From an uncultured Acidobacteriota bacterium (lineage in GTDB: Bacteria > Acidobacteriota > Vicinamibacteria > Vicinamibacterales > CAVVIG01), in assembly GCA_963728825.1 (NCBI GenBank), contig CAVSLA010000001.1, positions 423,886 through 487,885 on the forward strand: 64,000 bases of DNA, given 5' to 3'. The translations under genes and the position numbers were made by a program. Shown here piece by piece: positions 16,906 through 60,975 of this stretch (its first letter is position 1; each line of letters opens with the position of its first letter). The notes under the pieces were generated by a model. That model was not told the origin of the DNA. It saw only the letters and a list, made by a program, of their open reading frames with translations, and did no database searches.

Positions 16906-19419
16906 CTACCCGGCCAGGGCGATCAGCGGATCGATTCGCGTCGCCCGTCGGGCCGGCAGCGCACACGCGGCGATCGCCACGCCCGCGAGCACAGTGGCCG
17001 CGGCCACCAGCACGAGCGGATCGGTGGCCGAGACGTGGAACAGCTGGCTTTGGAGGCTGCGCCGCAAGGCCAGGGCACCGGCGGCGCCCAGGGCAAAGCC
17101 AACGGCAATCAGCATCAGGCCCTCGCGGAGGATGAGATCGAAGATGCTGCGACCGCTGCTGCCGAGCGCGAGCCGGATGCCAATCTCCCGCGTGCGCTGT
17201 GTCACGACGTAGGCGAGGACGCCGTAGATGCCAATCGCCGACAACAGCAGCGCGATCGCGCCGAACGCCAATGACAGGACGACCGGCGATCGCCGGTTGA
17301 CGAGCGAGCGATCGACACGCTCGGTCATCGTCAACATGTCGAAGAGGGCCAGCTCGCGATCGAGCGCGGCGATCGCCTGGCGCACCGAGCCGCCGAGCGC
17401 CGCCGGATCGCCAGCGGTTTTGATGGCGTAGTTGAGCGCGAAGCCCTGCGCCTGCGGCGGCGGCATGTTCTGCAGAACCGGGAAGTAGACCGCTCCCACG
17501 AACTCGTCTTCCTGCGTGAGGCTCTGCAGCTTCATCTCGCGAATCACCCCGACGACGTCGATGAACACCGTCCGCTCGGTGATGGCCGTGAGATTGCTCG
17601 GATCGGTCGGCAGATACATCCGGCGGCCGATCGGGCTCTGACCCGGCCAGAACCGTCGGGCGAGTCGATCGTCGACGATGACCACGCGCGGCTGCGGAGC
17701 GCCGAACGCGGATGGCGCGGCGTCAGGCGGAGCCACGTCCCGTTCGTCGAAGAACCGGCCTGACATCAGCTGGACGCCCATCGCCTCGAAGAATCCGGGC
17801 GAGATACTCGACTGCGTCGGAGCGATCGCGGCCTCACCCGGCCGCATCTGGTAGCCTTCGGCGAAAATCACGCTGTTGTTTCCGCTGCCGCCGAGCGGCA
17901 TCATGCTCGTCGTGCCGGCCGCCTCGACGCCGGGCAACGCGCGAACGCGCTGCAGCGACTCGTTCAAGAACCCGATCATTGCGGTGTTTTCGCGGAACCT
18001 GGCTCGGGGCAGGACGGCCGATGCGGTCAACACGCGGTCGGCGGTGAAGCCGGGATCGACCGCCAGCACCTGCCGAAAGCTGGAGAACAACAGTCCCGCC
18101 CCAGCCAGCAGCACGAAGGCAAACGCCACTTGAGTGACGACGAGGGTGCGTCGCAGCAACCGCGTGCCGCGGCCGCTCGTTCCCGTCCGTCCCTCCTCGC
18201 GCAGCATCGTCGTCACGGTCGACGGCAGCACTGCCGCCGTCGGGATCAGCCCCAGCACGAAACCGATGGCCGCCCCGGCCGCCATCGTGACGGCAATCAC
18301 GACACCGTCGAGTCGAATCTCGGCGCCGCGCGGCAGTTCCTGGATGTTCAGCGCGCCGAGCAGGCGAAGCGCCGCCCAGCCGACCGCGAGGCCGACCGCC
18401 GACGACGCGAGCGCGAGCATCAGGCCTTCGGTGATCAGTTGGCGCGCGATCCGGCTTCGACGGGCGCCGAGCGCGACGCGCGTCGCCAGCTCCTTCAAGC
18501 GCGCGCGCGATCGCACCAGCACCAGATTGGCGACGTTCACACAACCGATCAACAGGACGAACAGCGCGCCGCCCCACATCAGATAGAGGGTCGTCCGCAC
18601 ATCGCGCACGAGGTCGTCCTGCAGCGGGCTGACAATCGTGTGGAAGCCGGCGTTGACGACCAGCTCCTTGAACTGGGGGAACCGATCGAGATTGGCGGTG
18701 TTCAGCCGATCGATCTCCGACTGCGCCTGCTGGAAGCTGGCGCCGGCTTTCAGTCGTCCGATCTGCTGGAGGTTGTTGCTGTGCCGTGACTGGTCCGACT
18801 TCTGGACGGGAGTAAACGCCAGCGCACGCCACAACATGACGTCGGGCCGGAGGTAGACGAAGCTCTGTGGCATGACGCCGACCACGGTGTAGGTCTGGCC
18901 GTCGATCGGCACGTCGCGGCCGACGACGGTCAGATCGCCGCCGAATGCCGACTGCCACAAGCCGTAACTCAGCACGATCTTCCGCTGATTGCCGGGCTCA
19001 CCCTCGTCGTCGGTGAAGGTCCGGCCGTGCAGCGGCTGAACCGCCAGCACTCGAAAGAACGACGGCGTGACGTTCATCGCACGAACGCGCGTCGGTGTGC
19101 CGTCCTGGTCGATATTGACGCTGGCGTTGTTGTAGACCGCCTGCTCCGCAAACGCCGTCGTCTCACGCAGCCGATCGAAGTAGTCGGGCACGCCCACCGC
19201 CCGCAGGTTTGCGGCCCCCGCTTTGGGGTAGGCGTTACCGATGATCGCGATCCGGTCGGACTCGGACATCGGCAGCGGCCGCAGCAGCACGTTGTTGACG
19301 ACCGCGAACAGCGCCACGTTCGCGCCAATGCACAGCGCCAGCGTCACGGCGACGGTGGCGCTGAAGCTGCGGTCCTTCCACAGCAGCCGCAACCCTACTT
19401 TGACGTCATGACTGAGCAT
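16906..19419 (-). CDS. ADOP-family duplicated FtsX/MacB-like permease, copy 2 (no PadR, no leader domain)
   Basis: [41 protein letters not shown], with a duplicated FtsX architecture and a C-terminal [13 protein letters not shown]. Confidence 0.85.
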
Positions 19420-32485: not shown

Positions 32486-34093
32486 GTGGCGGGATATTCG
32501 ATGCGCGCGCGGCTGCCGCTGAACGGCGCCGGTCGCGCCGATATCACGCGCGATCCCGACATCATCCGCTCGTACCTCGAGGACGCCGCCCACTTCACGG
32601 GCGGGCATGCCGGCGAGCTGGTCGCACCGGCCAACGAAGCGCAGCTGGCGGACGCCCTGCGCAACGCGACCGCAATCCTGACAGTCGGCGCCCAGTCGTC
32701 GCTGACCGGCGGCGCCACGCCGATGGGCGAAACCATCGTCAGCACGAAGCGCCTGACCGGCATCGAGTTTCACGGTTCCACCCGCGTACGGGTTGGCGCG
32801 GGAGTGACCATCGAGGAGCTGATCACCGCTGTCGAATCGGCCGGTCATTACTATCCGCCGGCACCGACTTTCAAAGGCGCGTTCGTCGGAGGCACGATCG
32901 CCACCAACGCCGCCGGTGCGGCAACCTTCAAGTACGGGGCAACGCGCGACTGGGTCGAGTCGATCACCGTGATGTTGCCGTCAGGCGATGTCCTGGACAT
33001 GGAGCGCGGCGCGACCCGGGCCAACGGTGACGGATTCTTCGAGCTGCAGCTGCGGTCGGGGACGGTCAAGGTGCCGGCTCCCGGCTACCGGACGCCCCGG
33101 TTGCCGAAGCTGTCGGCTGGCTACTTCGCCGCGCCGCAGATGGACCTCGTCGATCTGTTCATCGGATCGGAAGGCACGCTGGGCGTGATCACGTCGGCAA
33201 CGCTGCGCATCCTCGCCGCTCGTCCCGCCATATGCGTTGCCCTGGTGCCGTTCCCCGACGAGCGCGCGGCCTTGAAATTCACCCGGATCCTCAGAGACGC
33301 GTCGCGTGAGACATGGCGCAGCTGCTGCCGGCGCGGCGTCGACGTTGCGGCCATCGAGTACATCGACGATCGCTCGCTGGCCATCATCCGCGAAGACGGC
33401 GCCGACGTGGTGAACGGCGTCAGCCTGCCGGCCTCAGCCCACAGCGCTCTGCTGGTGGCTCTGGAACTTCCGCCAGACGTCGATGCGGCTCAGGCCTTCG
33501 ACCAGATCGGACGGGTGCACGACGCGCATCGACCGGACACGCCGCTCATCCGGTTCTGCAGGCTGCTGCTGGACGCCCAGGTTCTCGACGATGTCGAGGT
33601 CGCGGTCCCAGGTGATGCGGTACGAGCCGCGCAGTTCGCGGCGATTCGCGAAGCCGTGCCGGCGGGCGTCAACCAGCGGGTCGGCAGAGCGAAGCAGGAC
33701 GTCGACCATCGAATCGAAAAAGTCGCCGCTGATATCGCCGTGCCGTTCGATCGCCTCGAAGATCTCATCGATCGGTTCCATGCCGAAGCGAAGCGGCGCG
33801 GCCTGCACGCCGTCGTCTGGGGGCATGCCTCTGACGCCAACCTCCACCCCAATGTCATCGCGCGATCGTACGAGGAGATGCAATGGGCCAAAGCGGTCGT
33901 TGCTGAAATCGGCCGCATCGCCATCCAGCTCGGCGGCGCGCCGATGGCTGAACACGGCGTCGGCAGAAACCCCATCAAGCAGCAGCTGCTCCGCGACCTC
34001 TATGGCGCCGACGGCATCGAGCAGATGCGCTCGGTCAAACGTGCGGTCGATCCTGATTGGAAACTGGCTCCGGGGGTTCTGTTCAGCCGTTGA
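32486..34093 (+). CDS. FAD-linked oxidase (GlcD / FAD_binding_4 family)
   Basis: VGAQSSLTGGATP, GSEGTLGVIT, and C-terminal GGAPMAEHGVGRNP..VKRAVDPDWKLAPG. An alternative start is the ATG at 32501. Confidence 0.8.
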   Translation: MAGYSMRARLPLNGAGRADITRDPDIIRSYLEDAAHFTGGHAGELVAPANEAQLADALRNATAILTVGAQSSLTGGATPMGETIVSTKRLTGIEFHGSTRVRVGAGVTIEELITAVESAGHYYPPAPTFKGAFVGGTIATNAAGAATFKYGATRDWVESITVMLPSGDVLDMERGATRANGDGFFELQLRSGTVKVPAPGYRTPRLPKLSAGYFAAPQMDLVDLFIGSEGTLGVITSATLRILAARPAICVALVPFPDERAALKFTRILRDASRETWRSCCRRGVDVAAIEYIDDRSLAIIREDGADVVNGVSLPASAHSALLVALELPPDVDAAQAFDQIGRVHDAHRPDTPLIRFCRLLLDAQVLDDVEVAVPGDAVRAAQFAAIREAVPAGVNQRVGRAKQDVDHRIEKVAADIAVPFDRLEDLIDRFHAEAKRRGLHAVVWGHASDANLHPNVIARSYEEMQWAKAVVAEIGRIAIQLGGAPMAEHGVGRNPIKQQLLRDLYGADGIEQMRSVKRAVDPDWKLAPGVLFSR

Positions 34094-34130
34094 TGCGCGG
34101 TGATGATGGGTGCGTGATATAAGGGGTTCG

Positions 34131-34490
34131 ATGGTTCGTCTGGTCATCTCCGCGGCAATCGGGTTCGCCATCGCGATCTCGCCGCTCTCCGTACTGTGCG
34201 GCCCCGACTGCGACACGGGGGGGCACGCGGCGGCCGCTGTCGAAGCGCCCTGTCCCTTGCACGACGCGCCGCCGGCCGATCACCACGACAGCTGCGACCA
34301 CGAACATGCCGTGGCGCCGGCGACCGCCGGCAAAACCGACAAAGCCATTACCGCTCAGAACGCCGCGCTGGAAATGTCCGAGCTCGACCAACTGTTCGAC
34401 GACCAGGTCGCCCCCGCGCTGCCGGACGTCCGTGTCGATTCCACTCCAGCCGAACTCCTCGCACGCCGTTTCTTGCCGCTCCGCATCTGA
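34131..34490 (+). CDS. Small exported His/Cys-rich protein, unknown function (possible metal ligand)
   Basis: MVRLVISAAIGFAIAISPLSVLCGPDCDTGGH..APCPLHDAPPADHHDSCDHEH. AAGGGG lies before the ATG. The gene sits directly upstream of the barrel gene. Confidence 0.4.
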   Translation: MVRLVISAAIGFAIAISPLSVLCGPDCDTGGHAAAAVEAPCPLHDAPPADHHDSCDHEHAVAPATAGKTDKAITAQNAALEMSELDQLFDDQVAPALPDVRVDSTPAELLARRFLPLRI

Positions 34491-34538
34491 TCCCTTCCGG
34501 CGTTCTGACACGAACTTTTCCGGAACGAGGATCAACCG

Positions 34539-35753
34539 ATGTATCGAACTGCTGGCGTCGTGTGCCTTGGTCTGTTTTTTTGTGGGGCCACGGCCCGTGC
34601 CCAAACCCCTCAGCCGCACGATCACACCGCCCATCAGATGGCGACTGGTTCGTCGTGGAGGTTCGCCTACGACGGCGTGCTGTTTGCGACGGTCAATCAT
34701 CAGGGTGGACCCCGCGGTGGAGACGAAGTGCTCGCGACCAACTGGTTGATGGGCATGGCGACTCGAAGACTTGGAAGCGGTGACCTGACCCTGGGCGGCA
34801 TGATCAGCTTCGATCCGGCCACCGCCGGCGCGCGCGGCTATCGCGAGCTGTTTCAGGTCGGCGAGGCTTACCACGGTGAGCCGCTGATCGATCGACAGCA
34901 TCCACACGACTTCATGATGCAGATGTCTGCCTCATGGCGCGTGCCGCTCGGCGCCACGCGCCTGACCTTGTCGGCCGCGCCGGTTGGCGAGCCGGCGCTC
35001 GGTCCGGTCGCGTTCATGCACCGTCCGTCCGCGGCGGAGAACTCGGTCGCCCCGTTGAATCACCACCGGCTGGACTCCACCCATATCGCGATGGGCGTGC
35101 TCACGGCGGCGCTCGAGCGCCCGGCCTGGACGATCGAGTCGTCGCTCTTTCACGGCCGCGAGCCCGACGACAACCGCTGGGACATCATGGATCCCGGACC
35201 GCTCGATTCATGGTCGGCGCGGGTCTGGTGGCGGCCCTCGTCTGCCTGGTCGCTGCAGCTGTCTCACGGTTTTCTGAACGAGCCGGAGGAGATCGAACAG
35301 ACGGACGTGCGGCGCACGACCGGGTCGTTATCGTGGTTCAAGACACGGGAACACGGATTCACCGCCGCCACCGCCGCCTTCGGCCGCAACGACGAAGAGC
35401 ACGGCGCGACCAACGGCGTGCTCGCCGAGGCGACGCACAAGGCAGGATTGAACTCGATTTTCGGTCGATGGGAAACGCTGCAGACCGAAGGGTTGCTCGG
35501 TCCCGAAGATCATCAACCTGACGACGATCAATCCGTGGTGACGGCGCTGACGATCGGCGCGGTCAGGGAGCTGCCGCGTTGGAAAGGTTTCGAGCCTGGC
35601 ATCGGCGCAGATCTGACCGCCTACCAGGTTCCTGCCGACCTCAGGACCGCGTACGGCGATCACCCGTTCTCATTCCATCTCTTCTTTCGCTTGAGGCCGC
35701 CCGCCGGGACGATGGGCCGGATGTGGAACATGACCATGGGCGGAGGGCATTGA
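34539..35753 (+). CDS. Putative outer-membrane beta-barrel protein with His-rich N-terminus and Met/His-rich C-terminus
   Basis: Signal peptide MYRTAGVVCLGLFFCGATARAQ, then TPQPHDHTAHQM. Alternating amphipathic strands, a DRQHPHD motif, and a C-terminal tail GTMGRMWNMTMGGGH. Confidence 0.55.
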   Translation: MYRTAGVVCLGLFFCGATARAQTPQPHDHTAHQMATGSSWRFAYDGVLFATVNHQGGPRGGDEVLATNWLMGMATRRLGSGDLTLGGMISFDPATAGARGYRELFQVGEAYHGEPLIDRQHPHDFMMQMSASWRVPLGATRLTLSAAPVGEPALGPVAFMHRPSAAENSVAPLNHHRLDSTHIAMGVLTAALERPAWTIESSLFHGREPDDNRWDIMDPGPLDSWSARVWWRPSSAWSLQLSHGFLNEPEEIEQTDVRRTTGSLSWFKTREHGFTAATAAFGRNDEEHGATNGVLAEATHKAGLNSIFGRWETLQTEGLLGPEDHQPDDDQSVVTALTIGAVRELPRWKGFEPGIGADLTAYQVPADLRTAYGDHPFSFHLFFRLRPPAGTMGRMWNMTMGGGH

Positions 35754-35846: not shown

Positions 35847-36407
35847 CTATGCGATCAGAACGGCCAGGCCGATCAGGCCCAGTCCGCTGATGATCAGCCA
35901 CGGCGCAAGGGCGCCGGCAGGCCCGCTCGAGATTTCGCCTTCCCCTTGAAGGCGATGCGCCACAGTCGCCTGGGCGGAAAACGCCACGCCGGCTGCCGCA
36001 AGCAGCAGCACCCAGCCGACGCCGAGCGCGGCGCGTGCCGCAGGCACGCCATTGAGGAGCTCCGTGGAAAAGAACAACGTTGCCAGCCAACTGGCGACGG
36101 CGACGCCCGCCACCAGCCTGAGGCGACCGATCTCCCGGTCGCCGGCCTGACGCCGCAGCTCGAGTTGCAGCGCCCGCTCGGCTCTGGCCCGTTCGCCCTC
36201 GAGCTGATCCCGTTCCAGTTCCAGGCGCCGCGAGTCGCGGTCGAATGCTTCCTTGAGCGCCGCGACCACCACGCCGGCGAGCCTCGCTTCGAGGGGACCG
36301 GTGGCGCCGGGCGCGAGCTGCTGCGGTTCATCCCGACGCGTCACTCGACGCGCGATGTCGGTCATGCCGAGCGCCGCGTCCATCAGACGCAGCCAGGGAA
36401 TTGCCAT
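35847..36407 (-). CDS. Membrane protein with a central coiled-coil and C-terminal TM helices, unknown function
   Basis: MAIPWLRLMDAALG..RRLELERDQLEGERARAERALQLELRRQ..LVAGVAVASWLATLFF..VGWVLLLAAAGVAF..LIISGLGLIGLAVLIA. Its ATG overlaps the M61 stop by 1 nt (TGATG). Confidence 0.5.
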   Translation of the reverse strand: MAIPWLRLMDAALGMTDIARRVTRRDEPQQLAPGATGPLEARLAGVVVAALKEAFDRDSRRLELERDQLEGERARAERALQLELRRQAGDREIGRLRLVAGVAVASWLATLFFSTELLNGVPAARAALGVGWVLLLAAAGVAFSAQATVAHRLQGEGEISSGPAGALAPWLIISGLGLIGLAVLIA

Positions 36408-38251
36408 CAGTTCACCCACCGTTCTCGAAATGCGCGCTGCGCCGCGCTCAACGATTGACCGCTCTGCTCGATTGGCACGATCTGGATGGCCGGATCCTCG
36501 GCAAGCGTCAGAGCGGTCGTCCGCTGCCGACCGGTGCGGTCGGTGAAGACAATCGAAATCCTGTCGCCAGGACGTCGCCGCGCCAGAACCGCGGCGATCT
36601 CGCTCGCGGAGCGGACCGCCGTTCCGTCGAGCTGCCGGATTTCGTCGTCCACATCCAGCTCCGCGTTGTAGATCGGCGATGCAAAGGCCGGCGGCGAGCC
36701 AAGGCGAACTCCACCGCCGCGGGGCTCGAGCTCCACGTCACCGAGCCACGCGCGACCGTTCGCCGGCCGCCGCAGCACGAAGCCGGCCCGCAGCAGCAGG
36801 ACCGCGTAGTCGGCGACCTCGCGACCTCGGATGAATCGCGCGAAGAAGTCACGCGCGAATGCAGCGTCGCCCGCCACTTCCGCCAGGCGCGCTTCGGCGT
36901 CTTCAATGGTGTACGGGCGGTCGACAAACCCGGGACGCGCGCCGCCCGGCTTGCCGTGCGCCCGCCACATGGCGCGCATGTAGTCGTCCAGCGTCACGCC
37001 GCCGTCCGAGCGCTGCCGGAGCGTCAAGTCGAGGGCCAGCGCAATCGCGCCGCCGAAGTCATAGTAGGAAATGAACGTCTGAGACCAGTTCGTCCGATCC
37101 AGCGGCCGGCCCAGGTCGGTGAACGAAGCCATCTGACTCATCTCCTCGGCAGACCGCACGGATCGTGCCGGATTCGAGGCAATGCTCGCCACCAGCTGGC
37201 CGAGTGCGTCGGCCAGGCCGGCATGATTCAGCAGCCCGGCGCGGGCCATCGTCAGCGGGCCGAAGTATTCCGTGAACCCTTCAGCCAGCCACAGCTCGCC
37301 TGACATGTTGGGTCCCTCGAAGTCGAATGGCTCGAGCGATCGTGGCCGGATGCGTTCGACGTTCCATCCGTGGAAGAACTCGTGCGCGACGCCGCGCAGC
37401 AGCGTGCCGCGACCGCTGCCCAGCGACATCGACGAGGTCAACACGCTGCTGTTGCGGTGCTCCATGCCGTCTTCGGCCGCGTACGGCAGATAGTCGGCCA
37501 GGAACGTGTAATGCCCCGAGTCGTAGACGGGGAACTCACCGAAGACATCGCGCTGCGCACGGACGATTCGCTCGACGTCCCGCACGAAGCCATCGACCTC
37601 GTTGGCCGAACCGGCGTGATGGACGGCGACCCGGATCGGTTGCCGGTCGACCGAGAATTCGCGAAGCGTCGGCAGCCCGAACTCCGCCGGCGAATCCATG
37701 AGGTACTGCAGATTAGGGGCGGTGAAGTCGAACGGCGTTCCGGCGGGATGGAGCTGCGTCACGACTCGCCAGTCACGACCCGGCGGTGGCTCGAACCGCA
37801 CCGCGATCGGTCGGTCATCGAAGCCTTGGGCCCACATCACGGCGGCCGGCATGTTGATGTGGGCGTGAGTCGGATCGACCGCCAGATAGGTGCCATCAAG
37901 CCGATCGCCGAATACCTTGTACCGAATCGTCGCGCTGCCGCCATGGTCGCGCACGACCCACCCGTGGGGATCCGACCGCACCGCAGTCAGCTCCCGTTGG
38001 CTGGATACCGCGCGGACGTCATACACGTTCTTCGCGAAGTCGTGTTGAGAGTAGCGGCCTGGAGAGGACCGACTCATGCGAAGCTCGAGCGGCCGATCGC
38101 TCAGGTCGGTCAGCCGGATCTCAACCTGCATCCATCGGTGCTGGGGCTCAGGAAACGTCAAGACGTACTGGATGAGAGGCTGCGCCCGCGGCGCCTCGAG
38201 CCACAGCGCGACCAGCGCCGCCACGAAGAGACCGATGAAACGGATCCGCAT
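36407..38251 (-). CDS. M61 glycyl aminopeptidase-family metallopeptidase with C-terminal PDZ domain, secreted
   Basis: Signal peptide MRIRFIGLFVAALVALWLEAPRAQ. HEFFHGWNVERIRP zinc motif. PDZ-like C-terminus (NAELDVDDEIRQLDG). Confidence 0.85.
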   Translation of the reverse strand: MRIRFIGLFVAALVALWLEAPRAQPLIQYVLTFPEPQHRWMQVEIRLTDLSDRPLELRMSRSSPGRYSQHDFAKNVYDVRAVSSQRELTAVRSDPHGWVVRDHGGSATIRYKVFGDRLDGTYLAVDPTHAHINMPAAVMWAQGFDDRPIAVRFEPPPGRDWRVVTQLHPAGTPFDFTAPNLQYLMDSPAEFGLPTLREFSVDRQPIRVAVHHAGSANEVDGFVRDVERIVRAQRDVFGEFPVYDSGHYTFLADYLPYAAEDGMEHRNSSVLTSSMSLGSGRGTLLRGVAHEFFHGWNVERIRPRSLEPFDFEGPNMSGELWLAEGFTEYFGPLTMARAGLLNHAGLADALGQLVASIASNPARSVRSAEEMSQMASFTDLGRPLDRTNWSQTFISYYDFGGAIALALDLTLRQRSDGGVTLDDYMRAMWRAHGKPGGARPGFVDRPYTIEDAEARLAEVAGDAAFARDFFARFIRGREVADYAVLLLRAGFVLRRPANGRAWLGDVELEPRGGGVRLGSPPAFASPIYNAELDVDDEIRQLDGTAVRSASEIAAVLARRRPGDRISIVFTDRTGRQRTTALTLAEDPAIQIVPIEQSGQSLSAAQRAFRERWVN

Positions 38252-40225: not shown

Positions 40226-40872
40226 ATGGCCCAGATCTTTCACCGCAGCACCAACACGATTTCCCGGGTCAGCATCTTCGGCACGCTCTTCATCGTCGCC
40301 GGGCTGCTCTGGCTGGTTGCCCAGATCCATCGCTCGTCGTGGCTCACCGATGCGCTGGTCGCCCGCGAGCAGCCGATTCAGTTCAGTCACGAGCGCCACG
40401 TCGGCGGCAACGCGATCGATTGCCGCTACTGCCACACGTCGGTCGAGGTCTCGCCATTCGCCGGCATTCCGCCGACCAAGACCTGCCTGAACTGCCACGG
40501 TGAGATTTTCGCCAACAGTCCGTTTCTGCTGCCGGTGCGAACCAGCTTCGAGTCGAACCGGCCGATCGAATGGACCCGCGTCCACGATCTGCCCGACTTC
40601 GTGCACTTCGATCACAGCATTCACGTGAGCAAGGGCATGGGGTGCACGACCTGCCATGGTCCGATCGATCGGATGGGGCTGACCTGGCAGGACAAATCGC
40701 TGCAGATGGAGTGGTGCCTGGACTGCCACCGCAATCCCGAACGCTACGTGCGACCGAAAAGCGAAGTCTTTTCCGTCGCCTATCGTCCGCCGCCCGATCA
40801 GATGGCGGTCGGACGGCGTCTGGTCGCCGAGTACGGCATTCAGAAACTACAGAGCTGCTCGACGTGTCATCA

Positions 40873-40876
<4 letters not shown>
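40226..40876 (+). CDS. actA: Alternative Complex III pentaheme cytochrome c subunit
   Basis: N-terminal TM anchor and five CxxCH motifs (CRYCH, CLNCH, CTTCH, CLDCH, CSTCH). First gene of the act cluster. Confidence 0.9.
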
Positions 40877-45374
<4,498 letters not shown>

Positions 45375-45377
45375 GCG

Positions 45378-45918
45378 ATGGCGACCCGAACGACGATCTA
45401 CGGCCTGATGGCCGAGTTCGACGACCCGAACGCCCTGGTCGCGGCGGCCTACCGCACGCAGTACGAGGGCTATCGGCGGGTCGACGCCTACTCGCCGTTT
45501 CCGATCGAAGAGCTCCACGAGGCGCTCGGCATCCACCACACGCGGCTGCCGCTCATCGTCTTCCTCGGCGGGCTCACCGGCTGCATCGGCGGCTATCTGC
45601 TCCAGGTACTGGGCGGCCGGCATCGCCTACCCGTTGAACATCGGCGGCAAGCCATTCAACGCCTGGCCGATGTTCATCCCGGTGACCTTCGAGTGCACGA
45701 TTCTCGGCGCGGCGCTGGCGGCGGTGCTCGGCATGCTGGCCCTGAACGGGCTGCCGATGCCGTACCACCCGGTGTTCAACGTCCCGCGCTTCGCGCTGGC
45801 CAGCCGCAACCGTTTCTTCCTCTGCATCGAAGCGCGCGACGCGAAGTTCAACCTCGAAGCCACGCGGCGATTCCTCGAGACGCTCGGACCGCGGGAGGTG
45901 TCGACCGTTGCCAACTGA
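45378..45918 (+). pseudogene. actD: Alternative Complex III subunit ActD, interrupted by a single extra base (frameshift) at about 45605-45606
   Basis: Frame 1 reads [64 protein letters not shown], then turns into nonsense. Skipping one G in ctccagGtactgg restores [49 protein letters not shown] (track ORF 45634..45918). This is either a sequencing indel or a true pseudogene. Confidence 0.8.
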
Positions 45919-46570
45919 AATCCTGTCGAGGACGCGGAGCAAGCAAAGGGCGCAGAGGCTGTTCAGCCTGCGCGCCTTGCGGGTCCCCTGCTCGCTCCGC
46001 GGCGCTGGCTCCCTTTGCGTCCTCTGCTCCCTCTGCGTCCTCGTCCTGGGCTGCAGACAAGATATGCACGACCAACCCACCTACACCGCGATGGAGCATT
46101 CGTCGTTTTTTCCCGACAACGCGGCGTCGCGGCCGCCGGTACCGGGGACGGTGGCGCGCAGCCAGCTGCGTGACGACGAGCTGTTGTATCGGGGCACAGT
46201 AAACGGCGAGGCGGCGGACGTGTTTCCGTTCCCGGTCGACGAGGCGGTGATGGCGCGCGGGCAGGATGTGTTCAACGCCTTCTGTTCGCCGTGTCACGGC
46301 CGCACCGGCCGCGGCGACGGCATCATCGTCCAGCGTGGCTTCACGCGGCCGCCGGATCTGACCGACGACAATGCGCGCAGCGCGCCGGTCGGCCACATCT
46401 TCAACGTCATCACCAACGGATTCGGCGCGATGCCCGATCATGCGGCGCAGGTGCAGGTCCGCGATCGATGGGCGATCGCCGCCTACCTGCGGGCGCTGCA
46501 GGTCAGCGCGTCCGCTTCGATCAACGACATTCCGGCGGCGGAACGCACGCGGCTGGAGGGCGCCCGGTAA
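45908..46570 (+). CDS. actE: Alternative Complex III monoheme cytochrome c lipoprotein
   Basis: Lipobox ..LCVLVLGC and a single CSPCH heme site. The start is uncertain: only TTG/CTG codons lie upstream of the lipobox (TTG at 45908 or 45977). Confidence 0.8.
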
Positions 46571-47778
46571 TGCGGCTCGCGCAAAGCCCCGATCGGTTCA
46601 TTCCGGAGCTGGCGCGCTACCAGCGTCAGCTGCTGATCGCGGGGGGCGCCGGCGCGGCCGTGTCGCTGGTCGGTCTGTTCATCGATCGTCGACAGTTCTT
46701 TCAGTCGTATCTGATGGCCTACCTGCTGCTGCTCGGTGCGACGCTCGGCTCGCTCGCGCTCGGCATGATTCATCAGCTGTCGGGCGGCGCCTGGGGCGTC
46801 GTGACGCGCCGGATTCTTGGCGCGGCCTCGCGCGTCCTGCCGGTGCTGACGCTGTTGTTCCTGCCGCTGCTGCTCGGCCTCCACGATCTCTACGAGTGGA
46901 CGCATGCGGAGGTCGTCGCCGCCGATCCGATCTTGAGGGGCAAGCAGCCCTACCTCAACATCCCGTTCTTCCTCGCTCGCGCCGTTCTCTACTTCGGCGT
47001 CTGGAACGCCTTCGCCTACTTCCTCAACCGCTGGTCGCTCGATCAGGATCGCAGCCCGGATCCGCGCATCGCGCGCCGCATGCAGAGGTTGAGCGGCGGC
47101 GGCCTGGTCGCCTACGTGTTGACGATGACCTTCGCGTCGTTCGACTGGGTGATGTCGCTCGATCCGCATTGGTACTCCACGATCTACGGCGTGCTCTTCC
47201 TGGGCGGACAGGCTCTGACGGCGCTCGCCTTCCTGGTGATTGCCCTGGCCTGGTTGAGCCGGCGCGAGCCGTTGAACACGATCGTGGTACCGACGCACTT
47301 TCACGACCTCGGCAATCTGATGCTGGCGTTCGTGATGCTCTGGGCCTACTTCTCGTTTTCGCAGTACCTGATCATCTACTCGGCGAACCTGCCGGAAGAG
47401 ATCACCTGGTACACGCGCCGCCTGTTCACCGGCTGGCGGGTGATTGGCATCGGTTTGGTGATCTTTCACTTCGCCGTGCCGTTTCTCATCCTGCTGTCGC
47501 GGGCGGTCAAGCGGAATCCGCAGCTGCTCGTCAAAGTGGCGATCGGCATCATCGTCGTCCGGCTGATCGATCTGTTCTGGCTGATTGCGCCGGAGCTGCA
47601 TCGCGACGGCTTCGTCATCAGCTGGCTCGACGTGCTGTTGCCGCTCTCGCTCGGCAGCGTGTGGCTCGGCTGCTTCGTGTGGCAGCTGCGCGGCCGGCCG
47701 CTGCTGCCGCTGCACGATCCGCAGTTTCACGAAGCGCTCGGGCCGATCATCGACCGGCGACAGGAGCGGCCGATATGA
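46570..47778 (+). CDS. actF: Alternative Complex III membrane subunit ActF
   Basis: [26 protein letters not shown].., polytopic. The ATG overlaps the actE stop (TAATG). The track's 46291 start is a spurious extension. Confidence 0.85.
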   Translation: MRLAQSPDRFIPELARYQRQLLIAGGAGAAVSLVGLFIDRRQFFQSYLMAYLLLLGATLGSLALGMIHQLSGGAWGVVTRRILGAASRVLPVLTLLFLPLLLGLHDLYEWTHAEVVAADPILRGKQPYLNIPFFLARAVLYFGVWNAFAYFLNRWSLDQDRSPDPRIARRMQRLSGGGLVAYVLTMTFASFDWVMSLDPHWYSTIYGVLFLGGQALTALAFLVIALAWLSRREPLNTIVVPTHFHDLGNLMLAFVMLWAYFSFSQYLIIYSANLPEEITWYTRRLFTGWRVIGIGLVIFHFAVPFLILLSRAVKRNPQLLVKVAIGIIVVRLIDLFWLIAPELHRDGFVISWLDVLLPLSLGSVWLGCFVWQLRGRPLLPLHDPQFHEALGPIIDRRQERPI

Positions 47779-48197
47779 GCGACGAACGCCAGCACCATCT
47801 CGAGTCGATCGATCAGCCGTCGGTGCATCACGAAGAAACCGACATCAACATCCGCGCTGTCTTCGGCTTCGGCGGCGGTCTGCTGGTCACGACCATCGTC
47901 GTGATGCTGGCGATGTGGGGGCTGTTTCGCTACCTCGACGGCCGGGCGGAGCGGCTCGGTGGTTCGCTCCGGCCGCTCGCGACGAATGAAGTGCGGCTGC
48001 CGCCTGAACCGCGACTGCAGATCACGCCGCGCGCCGACGCCGCCGAGTTCCGTGCGCAGGAAGACGCGCTGCTGAACGGTTACTCATGGGTCAATCGGGA
48101 AACAGGCACGGTCAGGATCCCGATCGCTGAGGCGATGAAGATGACGTTACAGCGAGGGTTGCCCGCGCGCGAGCAGCCGGCGGGTCAGCAGAAATGA
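47775..48197 (+). CDS. Small single-TM protein encoded between act and cox genes (possible ActG-like accessory subunit)
   Basis: MSDERQHH..INIRAVFGFGGGLLVTTIVVMLAMWGLF (TM) ..RLPPEPRLQ..LLNGYSWVNRETGTVRIPIAEAM. ATGA overlaps on both sides. Confidence 0.55.
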   Translation: MSDERQHHLESIDQPSVHHEETDINIRAVFGFGGGLLVTTIVVMLAMWGLFRYLDGRAERLGGSLRPLATNEVRLPPEPRLQITPRADAAEFRAQEDALLNGYSWVNRETGTVRIPIAEAMKMTLQRGLPAREQPAGQQK

Positions 48198-49135
48198 CGC
48201 GACGTTTTGTGTCCTTGGTGTCCTTGGTGTCCTTTGTGCTCCTGACATCTCCGCTCGCCGCCCAGATGAGCGGTGCCCCCAGCGCCGGATACCGCCTCGA
48301 GCCTGGAGTGGCGGCATCGGTCGTCCCGCAACCGCTGCGCGAGATCGGATTCGATCAGCGGCTCGACGAACGCGTGCCGCTGGACGTCGAGTTCAGAGAC
48401 GAGCTCGGGCAAACCGTACGGCTCGGTCAGTACTTCGGGCAGAAACCGGTCGTGCTCGCCTTCGTGTACTACGACTGTCCGATGCTCTGCACGATGGTGC
48501 TCAGCTCGATTACCAGCACGCTGGGCGTCCTGTCGCTCGATGCCGGCACGGACTTCGAGCTCGTGATGGTGAGCTTCGACCCGCGGGAAACACCGGAGCT
48601 GGCGGCGCGGAAAAAAGCGGAATATCTCGGGCGCTACGATCGACCTGGTGCCGCGGGCGGGTGGCATTTCCTCACCGGCAACCAGGCCTCGATCAGCCGG
48701 CTCACCGCAGCCGCCGGGTTCCGCTACACCTGGGACGAGGACACGAAACAGTTCGCGCATCCAGCCGGCATCGTGGTCCTCACGCCTGACGGCCGACTGG
48801 CCCGCTATCTGTTCGGCCTCGAGTTCGGTCCGCGAGACCTGCGCCTGGCACTGATCGAAGCCTCCGGTGGCCGCATCGGCACGGCGGTCGACACGGCGCT
48901 GCTCTATTGCTACCACTACGATCCGATGACCGGCCGCTACGGCCTGGTCGTGATGCGCGTGCTGCGCATCGCCGGCGCCGCCACGGTGCTGGCCCTCGGC
49001 ACATTCATTTTCGTCATGGTCAGGCGAGAACGCACCCGGCACCTACGCACCCTGCACCCGGCACCCGGCACCCCGCACCCGGCACCCGGCACCCGGCACC
49101 AGCCCCCGGCCCCCGCTCCCGACGTGAGGCAGTGA
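48194..49135 (+). CDS. sco1: SCO1/SenC copper chaperone for CuA assembly, with a C-terminal TM helix and a repeat-derived tail
   Basis: PVVLAFVYYDCPMLCTMV (CxxxC) and a downstream FAHPAG His. N-terminal VSLVSLVSFVLL and C-terminal HPAPGTPHPAPGTRH are both encoded by word repeats. Confidence 0.85.
   Translation: MTRRFVSLVSLVSFVLLTSPLAAQMSGAPSAGYRLEPGVAASVVPQPLREIGFDQRLDERVPLDVEFRDELGQTVRLGQYFGQKPVVLAFVYYDCPMLCTMVLSSITSTLGVLSLDAGTDFELVMVSFDPRETPELAARKKAEYLGRYDRPGAAGGWHFLTGNQASISRLTAAAGFRYTWDEDTKQFAHPAGIVVLTPDGRLARYLFGLEFGPRDLRLALIEASGGRIGTAVDTALLYCYHYDPMTGRYGLVVMRVLRIAGAATVLALGTFIFVMVRRERTRHLRTLHPAPGTPHPAPGTRHQPPAPAPDVRQ
48207..48244. repeat. 9-bp word repeat (GTCCTTGGT-type), second locus
   Basis: ttgtgtccttggtgtccttggtgtcctttgtgctcc inside the first codons of sco1. 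Same words as 3831-3869. Confidence 0.8.
49031..49100. repeat. 7-bp word repeat (GCACCCG-type), reverse complement of the 10978-11029 array
   Basis: gcacccggcacctacgcaccctgcacccggcacccggcaccccgcacccggcacccggcacccggcacc, lying in the last codons of sco1. Confidence 0.85.
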
Positions 49136-49136
49136 A

Positions 49137-50153
49137 ATGTGGCCCGGTACGCCGCTGTTTCCCGACACCGCCTCGACCATCGCGCCGCGCGTGGACGCGT
49201 TGTATTTCTTCCTGGTCGGCGTCGCCGCCTTCTTCTCGCTGCTGATTGCCGGCCTGATCATCTACTACGCGATCAAATTTCACCGCCGCGCCCCTGACAG
49301 CGTCGGCGCGCGCATCTCGGGCGGCCTGGTCCTCGAGATCACCTGGAGCGTCATCCCGCTGGCGATCGTGATGGTCATCTTCGTCTGGGGAGCCAGTGTG
49401 TTTTTTACGATGGCCCGTCCCCCGGCCGATACGCTGAACATCTATGTGGTCGGGAAACAGTGGATGTGGAAGTTCCAGCACCTGAACGGCGCCCGGGAGA
49501 TCAACGAGCTGCACGTGCCGATCGGCCAGCCGGTCAAGCTGATCATGACCTCGGAAGACGTCATCCACGATCTGTTCTTCCCGGCGTTCAGAGTGAAAGC
49601 CGACGTCATTCCCGGCCGCTACACCCAGATCTGGTTCGAAGCCACCCGGCCCGGCACCTATCACTTGTTCTGCGCCGAATACTGCGGCACCCGGCACTCC
49701 GGGATGATCGGCCAGGTCGTCGTGATGGAGCCGAGCGAATTCCAGACGTGGCTGAGCAGCGGTCAGGCCGAGGGGTCGCTGGCGTCCGCCGGCGGCAAGC
49801 TGTTTCGAGACCTGGCGTGCAACACCTGCCATCGCAGCGACGCCCAGGGGCGCGGTCCGGTCCTGGACGGGCTGTTTGGCAAGACGGTCACGCTCCAGAG
49901 CGGCGAGAACGTCGTCGTGGACGAAGCGTATATCCGCGAGTCGATCGTCAATCCGAACGAGAAGCTGACGGCGGGCTTTCAGCCGATCATGCCGGCCTAT
50001 CAGGGACAGGTGAACGAGGAAGGCCTGCTCGAGCTGATCGAATACGTCCGCGCGCTCGGCACCGGCGCGGCCGCGCCGGAGCTGCGGCCCGACGCCGGTG
50101 GTCCGCGGCCGGGTGAAAACACGCCGTCCCGGGGAGGAGACGTCCCCCGTTAA
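49137..50153 (+). CDS. ctaC: Cytochrome c oxidase subunit II with fused C-terminal cytochrome c (caa3 type)
   Basis: CuA site [20 protein letters not shown] and a C-terminal CNTCH heme c motif. Confidence 0.9.
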
Positions 50154-50157
50154 CCGT

Positions 50158-51772
<1,615 letters not shown>

Positions 51773-51783
<11 letters not shown>

Positions 51784-52504
51784 CACCGCCGCGGGCGCGA
51801 CCCGGCCCGGACACCACCGCCTCGACGACAGCGGCCCTGGGCACCGAAGCCTTGGCGGAGGTGGCCATCGGGCGCTGGCGCATCACTTCGACAACCTCGC
51901 CCAGCAGCAGGAAGCAGCCACGCTGGGCATGTGGGTCTTCCTGGTCACCGAGGTACTGTTCTTCGGCGGGCTGTTCGCCGCCTACTCGCTCTACCGCGCC
52001 TGGTATCCGGACGCCTTTGCCGCGGCGAGTCATACGCTGGACATCACGCTCGGCACGGTGAACACCGCCGTCCTGATCACCAGCAGCTTGACGATGGCGC
52101 TGGCGGTCCACGCGGCGCAGCTCGGCGAGCGGCATCGGCTGATGCTGTTTCTGATCGCGACGATGATTCTCGGCGGCGTGTTCCTGGGCATCAAAGGCGT
52201 CGAATACGCCCACAAGTTCACCGAGCATCACGTGCCCGGTCCCTCGTTTCACTTCGAGGAAGAGCACCTGTCAGCCCAGGCGCAGCTGTTTTTCTCGCTC
52301 TATTTCGTGATGACCGGCCTCCACGCGCTGCACATGGTGATCGGGCTCGGGATCATGGCGTGGATGCTGTGGTGGGCGTGGAACGGCACGATCGGACGTG
52401 ACTACTACAGTCCGATCGAAGTCAGCGGCCTCTACTGGCACTTCGTCGACATCGTCTGGATCTTCCTGTTCCCGCTCTTATATCTCATCGGAAGACACGG
52501 ATGA
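51773..52504 (+). CDS. ctaE: Cytochrome c oxidase subunit III
   Basis: [67 protein letters not shown]. Confidence 0.85.
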
Positions 52505-55328: not shown

Positions 55329-56646
55329 CAACGAACGTCGAACCCAGACCTTCCGTGCTCGAGCATGAAATCGTCCCTCGATGCGACTCGACGATGGCCC
55401 GGGCCACCGCCAGACCCAGGCCCGCGCCGCCGGTCGCGCGCGACCTCGCCTGATCGACGCGAAAGAACCGATCGAACACGTACGGCAGAGCGGCCGCCGG
55501 AATGCCCGTGCCGGTATCCGCCATCTCGATCCTGGCGCCGTCGTCAGCCGCCGACAGCGAAACAGTCACGCGGCCGTCCGGCCGGTTATAGACGATGGCA
55601 TTGGTCATCAGGTTGACGATCGCTTCTCTCAGCTGCTCCTCGTCGCCGACCACCTGCAGGTCGTCGCCGACCACCTGCAGCCGGACGGACCGCTCGACCG
55701 CGAGGGGCTCGAGCCACGCCGCCACTTCAGCGAGCATGTCACGCAGCGGAATGACGGAAGCGGTCGGGTTCTGATCGCCGCTCTCGGCACGCGCCAACGC
55801 CAGCAACCGCTCGACGATCCCCTGCATCCGAACGACCGCCCGGCGGCAGACGGACAACGAGTCGCGGAGCTGGTCTGCCGATTGTTCGCGGCCAAGTGTC
55901 GCGTCGATTTCGGCCCGCAAGATCGAGAGCGGTGTTCTCAGCTCGTGCGACGCATCGGCGACGAACCGGCGCTCGTGCTGGATCGCGAGTCGCAGCTTGT
56001 CGAACGCGTTGTTGAGCGACGCCGCGACCTGGCCAAGCTCCGTTTCGGTGCGATCGATTGGAATGCGGGCGTGCAGATCGCCGTCGGACATCGCCCGCGC
56101 GACCCGGCTGATCCGTTCGATCGGCGCCAATGCCCGCCGGGCGACGAACCAGCCGCCGAGGACAGCGAGCGCCAGCATCGCCGCCGCCGCGAGGGTCACG
56201 TTGACGGTCAGTTGCCACATGGCCGCGCGCAGCTGCGCCGTGCTCCGGCCGACGAGCACGACGGCGCCGGCCGCCGCCGCACCGGCCACCTCGCGGCGTC
56301 CGTCGATCATCCGGGCGCCCGGCCGCTCCGGGTACGGCACCTGCACGTCGGGATTCGACGAAGCAACCAGCTCGCGGCTGCGATTCCAGACCACGAAATA
56401 GCGGGCACCGTCGTCCTGCCGGAAGTAGTCGAGCGCGTCGCCTGGCAACTCCAGATCGAATCGTCCACCCGGCACCGGTTGGAGTGCTCCGGCGACCTGC
56501 TGTGTGAGCGAGTGCAGCTCGCGGTCCATTTCGGCAATCATCGATCGCCAGAACTGGTAACAGACGGTGGATCCGTAGAGCGCGACCACCAGCCCCAGAA
56601 TCAGGGCGTACCAGAGCACGAGCCGCACGCGGAGCGACTCAACCAT
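55255..56646 (-). CDS. Sensor histidine kinase (two TM, HAMP, HisKA, HATPase_c)
   Basis: H-box FVADASHELRTPLS, N-box NAIVYN, and G-boxes DTGTGIP and GGAGLGLAV. Confidence 0.85.
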   Translation of the reverse strand: MVESLRVRLVLWYALILGLVVALYGSTVCYQFWRSMIAEMDRELHSLTQQVAGALQPVPGGRFDLELPGDALDYFRQDDGARYFVVWNRSRELVASSNPDVQVPYPERPGARMIDGRREVAGAAAAGAVVLVGRSTAQLRAAMWQLTVNVTLAAAAMLALAVLGGWFVARRALAPIERISRVARAMSDGDLHARIPIDRTETELGQVAASLNNAFDKLRLAIQHERRFVADASHELRTPLSILRAEIDATLGREQSADQLRDSLSVCRRAVVRMQGIVERLLALARAESGDQNPTASVIPLRDMLAEVAAWLEPLAVERSVRLQVVGDDLQVVGDEEQLREAIVNLMTNAIVYNRPDGRVTVSLSAADDGARIEMADTGTGIPAAALPYVFDRFFRVDQARSRATGGAGLGLAVARAIVESHRGTISCSSTEGLGSTFVVTLPASPTAESRGTARYDPQPASS

Positions 56647-57991: not shown

Positions 57992-58030
57992 TCGATTTGG
58001 CTATAACGTGGCCGACGGAGGATGGAACGG

Positions 58031-60807: not shown

Positions 60808-60910
60808 GGGCCGCAGAGTACATCAGTCGCGGCAGGACGGCGATTCCCATTTTCACTGTTTCACGGTTCTTGACCGGCTGAACGCCTTACCCTAGGCTTA
60901 TCTAGGCAAG

Positions 60911-60934
60911 TGCCGGGCCGGAGAGGCCCGACCT
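60911..60934. repeat. Family C hairpin element, inverted orientation
   Basis: The reverse complement, aggtcgggcctctccggcccggca, matches the 19444 copy at about 20 of 24 positions. Stem CGGGCC/GGCCCG. Confidence 0.65.
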
Positions 60935-60975
60935 GCGCACGTCCCTTCAACCAATCGGTCTGGAGCAAAAGTGAG

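Follow-up and report, generated by a model that had tools for sequence, protein, structure and literature searches.

An unnamed family of porin-like outer-membrane proteins and a candidate copper-sensing leader in an uncultured acidobacterium

The gene pair and its position in the window

Our analysis concerns two adjacent genes within a 64,000-nucleotide (nt) stretch of the genome of an uncultured Acidobacteriota bacterium (GenBank assembly GCA_963728825.1, contig CAVSLA010000001.1, positions 423,886 to 487,885), which may together form a copper-responsive unit. Hereafter, the window means this whole stretch, and all positions refer to it. Both open reading frames (ORFs) are encoded on the forward strand, are separated by a gap of 48 nt, and specify a small protein of 119 amino acids (aa) and a putative outer-membrane barrel of 404 aa (Table 1). 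An initial annotation, made from the sequence alone, had described them as a two-gene module composed of an exported His/Cys-rich peptide and an outer-membrane barrel with a His-rich N-end and a Met/His-rich C-end, and had guessed that the metal is copper. The coordinates and all of the motifs on which this description was based could be confirmed: the small protein starts with the hydrophobic leader MVRLVISAAIGFAIAISPLSVL and carries the CGPDC, PCPLH, and HHDSCDHEH clusters, and the large protein displays QTPQPHDHTAHQM at its mature N-end, DRQHPHD at residues 118-124, and the sequence GTMGRMWNMTMGGGH at its C-end.

Both ORFs look coding. The GC content at the first, second, and third codon positions was 0.73/0.49/0.80 in the small and 0.64/0.52/0.78 in the large ORF, next to 0.71/0.49/0.80 for the neighboring gene of a flavin adenine dinucleotide (FAD) oxidase in a genome with a GC content of 65%; this pattern of real genes was not present in the overlapping alternative frames. 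The small protein would comprise 126 aa if translation started from a GTG at position 34110; the start yielding 119 aa is also the one used in the database entry P0121. In the Vicinamibacterales, the order of the genes encoding the FAD oxidase, the small ORF, the barrel, a 190-aa membrane protein, and an M61 peptidase is kept as a synteny block. A scan for promoters and terminators revealed no promoter-like site and a single terminator-like hairpin, located inside the barrel ORF, versus 1.5 expected by chance. The CuA/CuB oxidase and SCO1 genes, which the initial annotation had placed about 12 kb away, are indeed found there, with SCO1 at positions 48194-49135, 12.4 kb from the pair, and COX2/COX1/COX3 at positions 49137-52504.

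Table 1. Features of the gene pair. A1 is the alignment of 41 close barrel homologs and A2 the alignment of 24 members of the small-ORF family
Feature	Position	Strand	Basis
Shine-Dalgarno-like AAGGGG of the small ORF	34121-34126	+	4 nt 5′ of the ATG; direct sequence reading
Small ORF, 119 aa plus TGA; candidate CutF-like exported copper-sensing leader	34131-34490	+	ORF list, GC profile at third codon positions, homolog, motif family
N-terminal export signal or membrane anchor, residues 1-22, MVRLVISAAIGFAIAISPLSVL	34131-34196	+	Sequence; equivalent in all 24 relatives
Cys/His cluster C23-GPD-C27, C41-PL-H44, H52-H53-DS-C55-D-H57-E-H59	34197-34307	+	A2
Spacer, length conserved, sequence variable	34308-34466	+	A2
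C-terminal peptide RFLPLRI plus TGA	34467-34490	+	Family motif [PS]-[LF]-R-[ILV]-stop
Predicted mRNA stem-loop, GCAUCUGAUCC... paired with ...GGAUCAACCGAUGU	34483-34542	+	RNAfold
Shine-Dalgarno GAGGA of the barrel gene	34527-34531	+	7 nt 5′ of the ATG; inside the stem
Gene of the predicted 404-aa porin-like outer-membrane barrel, large unnamed family	34539-35753	+	ORF list, homologs, predicted fold
Sec signal peptide of the barrel, MYRTAGVVCLGLFFCGATARA, A-R-A/Q	34539-34601	+	Sequence reading; model helix at residues 2-20
Short His-rich mature N-end of the barrel, QTPQPHDHTAHQM	34602-34640	+	A1: in some homologs, not in others
DRQHPHD, residues 118-124, long loop between strands 3 and 4	34890-34910	+	A1 and model
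H161-R162 ... H175-H176-R-L-D179-S180-T-H182, long loop between strands 5 and 6	35019-35084	+	Invariant in A1; loop from model
E208-P-D210-D-N-R213-W214, loop between strands 7 and 8	35160-35180	+	Invariant columns of A1
C-terminal segment of the barrel, MGRMWNMTMGGGH	35712-35750	+	After the last strand

The barrel family and its copper-gene neighborhoods

The initial annotation had recognized neither protein as a member of a named family, and in line with this, the Pfam and NCBIfam models produced no match for either the 119-aa or the 404-aa protein. An exact look-up of the barrel protein returned no identical record. A search of a set of 5.8 billion proteins, in turn, yielded more than 7,889 homologs of the 404-aa protein at E values of at most 1e-3, and the 50%-identity representatives formed 2,729 clusters. 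All sources list its members as ‘hypothetical’ or leave them unnamed, and we found no paper on it in the literature. According to a genome scan, most members belong to the Acidobacteriota, namely to the Vicinamibacterales, which include the closest relatives of the window, and to the Pyrinomonadaceae, Thermoanaerobaculia, Bryobacterales, and Terriglobales. The family is also found in Verrucomicrobiota, Bacteroidota (Mucilaginibacter, Ginsengibacter, and Pontibacter), Armatimonadota, Myxococcota, and Alpha- and Betaproteobacteria.

The structure of the 404-aa protein was modeled by AlphaFold2 from alignment A1. The model (predicted local distance difference test [pLDDT] score of 76, predicted template modeling score of 0.76) consists of 16 beta-strands behind the helix of the signal peptide, and the best Foldseek matches in the PDB were 16-strand general porins (Omp32, OmpF, BpsOmp38, and OmpT/U) with E values of about 1e-11, template modeling (TM) scores of 0.51 to 0.57, and approximately 10% identity. 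At the level of sequence, a search of the PDB with the barrel profile gave chance matches only, with no relative at an E value below 0.6. The predicted fold thus agrees with the initial call of an outer-membrane barrel and supports the assignment of the 404-aa protein as a 16-strand porin-like barrel.

Closer inspection of the alignments revealed that the invariant columns of the family sit outside the strands, in three long inter-strand loops. Residues D118, Q120, H121, and H123 are invariant in A1, and among 124 near-full-length diverse representatives (36-63% identity), which were used for motif counts, QH[PAT]H[DN] and HHxxD[SA]xH each occur in 119 and EPD occurs in 91. The DRQHPHD motif, which the initial annotation had singled out, is therefore part of a family-wide His/Asp cluster (DxQHPHD, HR, HHxxDSxH, and EPD), the rest of which had been missed, and it is this internal cluster and not the terminal tails that constitutes the signature of the family. 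The His- and Met-rich motifs noted at the two ends of the barrel are present, but they are not general: M392-G-R-M-W-N-M398 is invariant or nearly so in the 41 close homologs and was found in only 2 of the 124 diverse representatives, which makes it clade specific, and the N-terminal His stretch is variable. In the diverse representatives, N-terminal extensions are enriched in His (4.8%) and Met (6.6%), and the N-terminal region of one relative (locus L084) contains about 250 residues of MxxM/H repeats. Given the topology of porins, in which both termini are periplasmic, the loops with the His/Asp cluster would be located on the extracellular side and would be of the kind that folds into the lumen in porins. 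Since the C-terminal tail follows the last strand, it should be periplasmic by the same topology.

The genetic context of the relatives points to copper. Members of the family are fused to a C-terminal YHS domain through His/Met linkers that prolong the tail, to an N-terminal cytochrome c through His-rich linkers, or to Cys-rich modules. At locus L084, the gene order is a Cus-type resistance-nodulation-division (RND) pump, a cupredoxin, the small ORF, the barrel, CopC-CopD, PCYCGC, a MerR regulator, and a Cu P-type ATPase, and at locus L085, a Cu-ATPase, a YHS protein, DUF1775, and PepSY_TM precede a YHS-fused barrel that is followed by a cytochrome c and a Cus pump. In a plasmid of Sphingobium baderi, a MerR/glutaredoxin unit and DUF305 enclose the barrel gene, with a heavy-metal ATPase nearby, and on a Pontibacter plasmid, the order is copper ATPase, hypothetical protein, barrel, and four-helix-bundle copper-binding protein; on both plasmids, the barrel carries the label ‘hypothetical protein’ of the Prokaryotic Genome Annotation Pipeline. 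Directly 5′ of the barrel gene, a multicopper oxidase or an HMA protein is encoded at two further loci (L081 and L083, the multicopper oxidase at L081). A census of 149 neighbors at the distant loci L036-L070 counted AhpC/Redoxin 14 times, PCYCGC 8 times, HMBD, YHS, and CusF 7 times each, and P-type ATPase and thioredoxin-like proteins 6 times each. The context of the closer relatives is mixed and includes housekeeping genes along with cytochrome c, DUF1775, ATPase, CusF, and PepSY_TM genes. Collectively, these neighborhoods and fusions support a copper-related function of the barrel family, as judged from sequence.

Several further observations were made at these loci. The barrel homologs P0130, P0149, P0224, P0197, and P0134 carry either an N-terminal cytochrome c attached by a His-rich linker or Cys-rich CxxC modules or DUF5666, and the fusion of a cytochrome with a porin might indicate that the metal is handled by redox chemistry. 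Beside the barrel, a protein of approximately 440 aa with weak BNR_2 matches recurs in copper islands (L084 and L085; 5 of the 149 census neighbors), and PCYCGC and AhpC/TlpA-like redoxins are encoded 3′ of the barrel at many Pyrinomonadaceae loci. Upstream of barrel homologs of the Pyrinomonadaceae (L053, L067, and L075), we found small proteins that are secreted and extremely rich in Cys (repeats such as CCGCCGDSCDMKKKD), and a 65-aa protein (GCCADAPCCKEG...) is encoded next to the barrel gene of the Sphingobium plasmid (L088:11274-11468). These Cys-rich small proteins look like exported proteins of the metallothionein type.

The position of the barrel in copper islands resembles that of CopB/PcoB, which is likewise an outer-membrane beta-barrel of copper resistance loci: the family member at L081 is encoded beside a multicopper oxidase and the one at L084 before CopCD, that is, in the position of copB. 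Moreover, the N-terminal region of PcoB is poorly conserved, disordered, and rich in His and Met (PMC12509749), and the barrel family displays a poorly conserved His/Met-rich N-terminal region as well, which is short in the window protein (QTPQPHDHTAHQM) and long in relatives. Nevertheless, membership in the CopB/PcoB family was rejected. When a profile of PcoB and four diverse plasmid CopB sequences was compared with A1, the hhalign probability was 0.8%, and the barrel did not match PF05275. The number of strands differs as well, with 12 in the PcoB barrel (PMC9210255) and 16 in the model of the window protein, and the internal conserved His cluster in the long loops of the barrel family is a further difference. 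Also in contrast to CopB/PcoB, no multicopper oxidase of the CopA/PcoA type is encoded beside the window barrel, and such an arrangement was seen for one relative, L081. The barrel may work like CopB, but the hhalign result and the difference in strand number place it outside the CopB family. With the general porins Omp32, OmpF/OmpC, and OmpU/OmpT, which are the best structural matches, the barrel shares the number of strands and long loops able to constrict the pore; it differs from them in its low identity (about 10%, TM score of about 0.55), in the lack of a porin Pfam match, in the metal-ligand-rich loops and termini of its family, and in the copper-gene context. Cyc2-type proteins are fused cytochrome-porins, and the N-terminal c-type cytochrome of some barrel members (P0130, P0149, and P0224) recalls them. 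However, the window barrel has no CxxCH heme motif, and CxxCH was found in just 6 of the 124 representatives.

The small ORF and a predicted stem-loop at its end

A sequence search with the small protein retrieved only the protein itself and one homolog with 89% identity, and a profile built from 24 positional relatives recovered nothing beyond close copies from Pyrinomonadaceae. As the sequence searches remained nearly empty, the small-ORF family was assembled by position and motif. Behind the 89%-identical homolog, too, a gene occupies the barrel position, an ORF of the same kind lies 5′ of the barrel in the two closest long contigs, and members of the family precede barrel homologs at no fewer than 22 of 85 loci from several acidobacterial classes. 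The C-terminal pattern of the family, by comparison, is found in just 1.7% of all ORFs of those 85 loci. The view of the initial annotation that the two genes form a conserved module was thereby upheld.

The 24 aligned family members (A2) are highly divergent, with about 20% identity and a mean column identity of 24%, and are 110 to 154 aa long. They nevertheless share one layout, which consists of a basic residue and a hydrophobic N-terminal segment (Arg3 and a stretch of about 18 residues in the window protein), C-x3-C directly after it, CH, C-x-H-x-H, and, in the C-terminal half, a nearly invariant Pro, usually as PP, and the end [PS]-[LF]-R-[ILV]-stop. C23, H44, and C55 are invariant across the 24 relatives, and so is the penultimate Arg (24/24). 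The spacer between the third conserved Cys and the C-terminus is rich in Ala, Ser, and Pro and measures 52 to 72 residues (median of 64), with a single Pro as its sole conserved column; the PP of most relatives is located 10 to 18 residues from the end. One alternative explanation of these features was discarded and another was weakened. Most members carry residues before the first Cys that do not fit a lipobox (DWC, DHC, ERC, and NQC), which speaks against a lipoprotein. The possibility that the L-R-I end is conserved at the RNA level only is weakened by codon usage: across 20 loci, the Arg codon varies between CGC, CGA, CGG, CGU, and AGA, and the codons at the Leu position are CUU, CUC, CUG, and UUC. 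The synonymous variation of the Arg codon suggests that selection acts on the peptide itself.

A second class of small exported ORFs with CxxxC was noticed about 0.8 to 0.9 kb upstream of the barrel (L035, L041, L054, and L074), with one gene between the ORF and the barrel. These ORFs have PPP near their end and terminate in ...CCVFLI or ...SVFLI, and they appear related to the ...SVFRI form of L071 and L084. At L026, an ORF with the full set of N-terminal motifs (CLVSC, HCH, and CDHDH) continues into the barrel signal peptide as a single 200-aa frame, possibly as a result of a frameshift, an assembly error, or a natural fusion.

The 66 nt from the end of the small ORF to the start of the barrel gene fold as one hairpin in RNAfold, with a free energy of −23.8 kcal/mol and a z-score of −4.25, and none of 200 dinucleotide shuffles folded as well. 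The last codon, the stop codon, and the bases that follow (GCAUC-UGA-UCC) pair with GGAUC of the Shine-Dalgarno region of the barrel gene and with GAUGU, which includes its start codon. In the relatives, the intergenic distance (to start codons with a Shine-Dalgarno sequence) is mostly 48 to 122 nt, and the Shine-Dalgarno/AUG region is paired with the upstream stop region in the minimum free energy (MFE) fold of 14 of 20 loci, including the window. The duplex between the two regions reached a median of −15.4 kcal/mol, compared with −9.1 kcal/mol for 51 further pairs of neighboring genes on one strand, taken from the same loci and likewise with a Shine-Dalgarno sequence (Mann-Whitney p=1.8e-5) and with −12.8 kcal/mol for noncognate combinations (p=0.015). 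When only noncoding bases were considered (the 24 nt behind the stop codon and the 22 nt ahead of the start codon), the own partner was on average 2.5 kcal/mol better than the partners from other loci (Wilcoxon p=0.005). Because this advantage resides in noncoding bases, the complementarity is lineage specific and more than a by-product of the L-R-I codons. An Rfam search of positions 33900-34800 found no known RNA family.

A proposed copper-responsive unit and its alternatives

The architecture of the small ORF is reminiscent of a group of cis-acting leaders that read periplasmic copper. CutF of Rhodobacter capsulatus, which is small and exported by the Sec route, has four Cys, two of them in CxxxC, and a proline-rich arrest motif at its C-terminus (PMC9973294), and copper bound to its periplasmically exposed nascent chain stalls the ribosome, which leads to melting of the stem-loop over the cutO Shine-Dalgarno sequence (PMC9973294; bioRxiv 10.1101/2025.02.05.636593). 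CruR of Bordetella pertussis combines CXXC with a C-terminal RAPP, and the length of its spacer is conserved and functionally important (PMC9426467). The polarity of CruR is opposite to that of CutF; copper relieves the arrest and the expression of a TonB-dependent transporter falls (PMC9426467), so that copper switches the CutF target on and the CruR target off (PMC9973294, PMC9426467). Genes reported beside CutF-like ORFs encode Cus components, CusF, PCuAC, Sco, YcnI, CopC, PepSY_TM, and AhpC_TSA.

At 119 aa, the small protein stays below 150 aa, as do CutF, CruR, and CopL (of Xanthomonas and Stenotrophomonas), and its hydrophobic N-terminal segment may be an export signal like theirs. It further has in common with this class CxxxC accompanied by further Cys, a conserved C-terminal peptide that is set off from the metal motif by a spacer whose length is conserved, a same-strand downstream gene after a short intergenic region, the place of first gene in a copper-related operon, a predicted stem-loop that hides the ribosome-binding site of the next gene, and the neighboring gene types (AhpC_TSA, YcnI/DUF1775, CopC, PepSY_TM, and Cus components) around the barrel. 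In addition, the barrel operon of the Sphingobium plasmid is headed by a small ORF with the hallmarks of DUF2946/CutF, that is, a signal peptide, HCPGM, CGLC, and the end PAPPPPRIA, which suggests that the barrel family is tied to this mode of control in Proteobacteria too. There are also clear differences. Whereas CutF carries PPP and CruR carries RAPP three residues before its end, the small ORF terminates with [PS]-[LF]-R-[ILV] directly at the stop codon, a position that suggests pausing at termination. The PP or RAPP within about 15 C-terminal residues by which CutF-like ORFs are defined is absent from the window copy, and the CH and CxHxH motifs of the family are extra relative to CutF, CruR, and CopL. 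The host differs as well, as Acidobacteriota are not mentioned in the main text of the published studies (by a search of that text for the term), and so does the controlled gene, an unnamed porin-like barrel in place of the classes named in the text of those studies (OEP, ACR_tran, CusB/CusF, TonB-dependent transporters, and PCuAC).

On balance, we lean towards the view that the pair constitutes a copper-responsive unit in which a cis-acting sensor ORF of the CutF/CruR/CopL type controls an outer-membrane copper channel. In such a unit, the small ORF would be exported during its own translation. With the ribosome at the ...[LF]-R-[ILV]-stop end, the spacer of about 64 residues would span the ribosome tunnel and the translocon, placing the four-Cys/His cluster in the periplasm. 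Binding of copper to the exposed cluster, set against disulfide formation, might alter the release of the chain or the dwell time of the ribosome at the stop codon. A ribosome on the stop codon would in turn melt the 5′ arm of the stem-loop and expose the Shine-Dalgarno sequence and AUG of the barrel gene, and the amount of barrel would thereby follow periplasmic copper. The three long loops with the invariant His/Asp cluster would form a metal-selective passage through the barrel, and the His/Met-rich termini on the periplasmic side could serve as antennae that pass copper to or from it. The barrel would then represent a functional analogue of CopB/PcoB from a different family. The analysis itself provides the predicted barrel fold, the conservation within both families, the copper genes and fusions of the relatives, and a predicted stem-loop with lineage-specific complementarity; copper as the ligand, pausing of the ribosome, the sign of the regulation, and the direction of transport are the parts of this scheme that we infer. 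As for direction, the context of the barrel in relatives favors a role in resistance, and the stand-alone position of the pair in the window would also suit uptake.

Several findings weigh against this view, the basis of which is wholly computational. Just about a quarter to a third of the sampled barrel loci have a small ORF, and none of the 24 small-ORF members matched the Pfam DUF2946 or NCBIfam CopL models at an E value of up to 1. The window copy ends with DSTPAELLARRFLPLRI, which contains neither PP nor RAPP and has single prolines at positions −14 and −4. As for the RNA, the MFE fold lacks the pairing of the stop region with the Shine-Dalgarno/AUG region at 6 of the 20 loci, the z-scores for folding of the whole region are weak at many loci, and only 8 of the 20 duplexes beat 95% of shuffles; some of the pairing from stop to start could also be a by-product of the L-R-I codons, as CUC CGC AUC holds the complement of AUG. 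In the barrel model, the loops with the conserved His residues have pLDDT scores of about 56 to 60, and their position in the lumen is deduced from topology. Lastly, the copper guess of the initial annotation, which is strongly backed by the neighborhoods and fusions of the relatives, has no counterpart in the window itself. Genes of the CopA/CusA/CsoR type, for which the initial annotation had suggested a search nearby, were not found: none of the ORFs scanned in the 64 kb was identified as CopA, Cus, CsoR, a multicopper oxidase, or another protein of copper efflux or regulation. The FAD oxidase and M61 peptidase genes flank the pair. The link to copper is hence provided by the relatives and not by the window context.

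The small protein had initially been regarded as a metal-binding partner. As such, it might be a stable chaperone of Cu(I), tethered to the membrane or located in the periplasm, or a metallothionein-like protein, which would dock on the barrel through its C-terminal peptide and pass copper to or from it; a regulatory role would be compatible with this. The four conserved Cys/His positions, which exceed a minimal CxxxC, and the conserved extreme C-terminus, which could be a docking peptide, would fit a partner, as would the small secreted proteins with a clearly structural, metal-binding role (Cys-rich repeat proteins, an HMA protein, and CusF) that occupy the equivalent position at other barrel loci. 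However, a folded partner would rarely conserve nothing but the length between its motifs, a pattern typical of nascent-chain sensors (PMC9426467), and the terminal codons of the small ORF are located within the stem that masks the ribosome-binding site of the barrel gene. Exported CutF, moreover, is rapidly degraded and undetectable in vivo (PMC9973294). We regard a stable partner as quite unlikely; the architecture is that of the CutF/CruR/CopL leaders, and by analogy with them, a regulatory leader is most likely the better reading of the 119-aa ORF.

For the barrel, an alternative is a copper uptake channel that supplies respiratory cuproenzymes (the aa3-type oxidase via SCO1), with the leader acting as an off-switch at copper sufficiency in a CruR-like polarity. 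The pair stands alone with no efflux genes beside it and lies 12 kb from SCO1 and COX2/1/3, PcoB as the functional analogue has been reported to permit copper import (PMC9210255), uptake transporters are under the control of CruR-type leaders (PMC9426467), and the neighbor types AhpC/TlpA, DUF1775 (YcnI), and PepSY are typical of copper acquisition operons. On the other hand, a distance of 12 kb to the oxidase genes is no linkage, and in most of the distant relatives the barrel adjoins efflux or detoxification genes (Cu-ATPase, Cus RND, CusF, multicopper oxidase, and MerR), which leaves uptake doubtful in our estimation. It is highly improbable, in turn, that the barrel is a general or otherwise specific porin and that the gene association and the Cys/His motifs reflect silver, zinc, nickel, cobalt, or redox stress. 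The fold is closest to nonspecific porins, some CutF-like clusters are thought to sense nickel or cobalt (PMC9973294), and many neighbors of the closest relatives are housekeeping genes. Yet the fusions and neighbors belong to specifically copper-related families (YHS, HMBD, CusF, CopCD, PCYCGC, DUF305, four-helix copper-binding protein, and multicopper oxidase), and the invariant His cluster and the Met-rich tails suit Cu(I)/Cu(II) chemistry, with silver traveling along with Cu(I).

Among the steps of copper homeostasis in bacteria, passage across the outer membrane belongs to those that are less well understood, and the players known at this site are CopB/PcoB, a few TonB-dependent receptors, and the general porins. 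The barrel family has thousands of members, is found on plasmids as well as in copper islands of soil-dwelling Acidobacteriota, Bacteroidota, Verrucomicrobiota, and Proteobacteria, and is hidden throughout behind the label ‘hypothetical protein’; it would be an obvious missing candidate. Going beyond the copper-responsive unit as such, we tentatively put forward a stronger and less certain reading of both genes. The barrel may represent a new and widespread multi-phylum family of outer-membrane channels selective for copper, which would have neither structural nor evolutionary ties to CopB/PcoB or TonB-dependent copper receptors and whose pore would be lined by the invariant His/Asp cluster, and the small ORF may represent a new class of transmembrane nascent-chain metal sensors that pause at termination through (PP)...[LF]-R-[ILV]-stop and not through polyproline or RAPP arrest. 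If this were true, the small ORF would stand for a separate evolutionary line among the sensors, discovered only recently, in which a nascent chain under export monitors the copper of the periplasm, and the CutF/CruR principle would extend to Acidobacteria and to a new arrest chemistry. Its terminal motif, unlike the known ones, offers a natural comparison for how arrest peptides work. The candidate leader would be a known kind of element in a new form, and the barrel belongs to a large uncharacterized family.

Other genes of the window were noted in passing. The 190-aa predicted membrane protein of the synteny block (35847-36419, − strand) has no Pfam match; its gene lies just upstream of that of the M61 peptidase and converges tail-to-tail with the barrel gene, and the arrangement is the same in the related Vicinamibacterales contigs L001, L002, and L004. 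A respiratory cluster (40570-52504) begins 6 kb downstream of the pair with alternative-complex-III-like genes (a 1130-aa Fe-S protein, an NrfD-like membrane subunit, and cytochrome c), which are followed by SCO1 and then by COX2/COX1/COX3; a 495-aa ORF within it (46291-47778) has no Pfam match. Two long ORFs with a good coding signal, of 702 aa (53220-55328, + strand) and 419 aa (58022-59281, + strand), likewise have no Pfam match and flank a histidine kinase gene (55255-56646, − strand). The window also contains three large permease genes of the MacB_PCD/FtsX type (7878-10715 and 16906-19419 on the − strand and 60910-63564 on the + strand).

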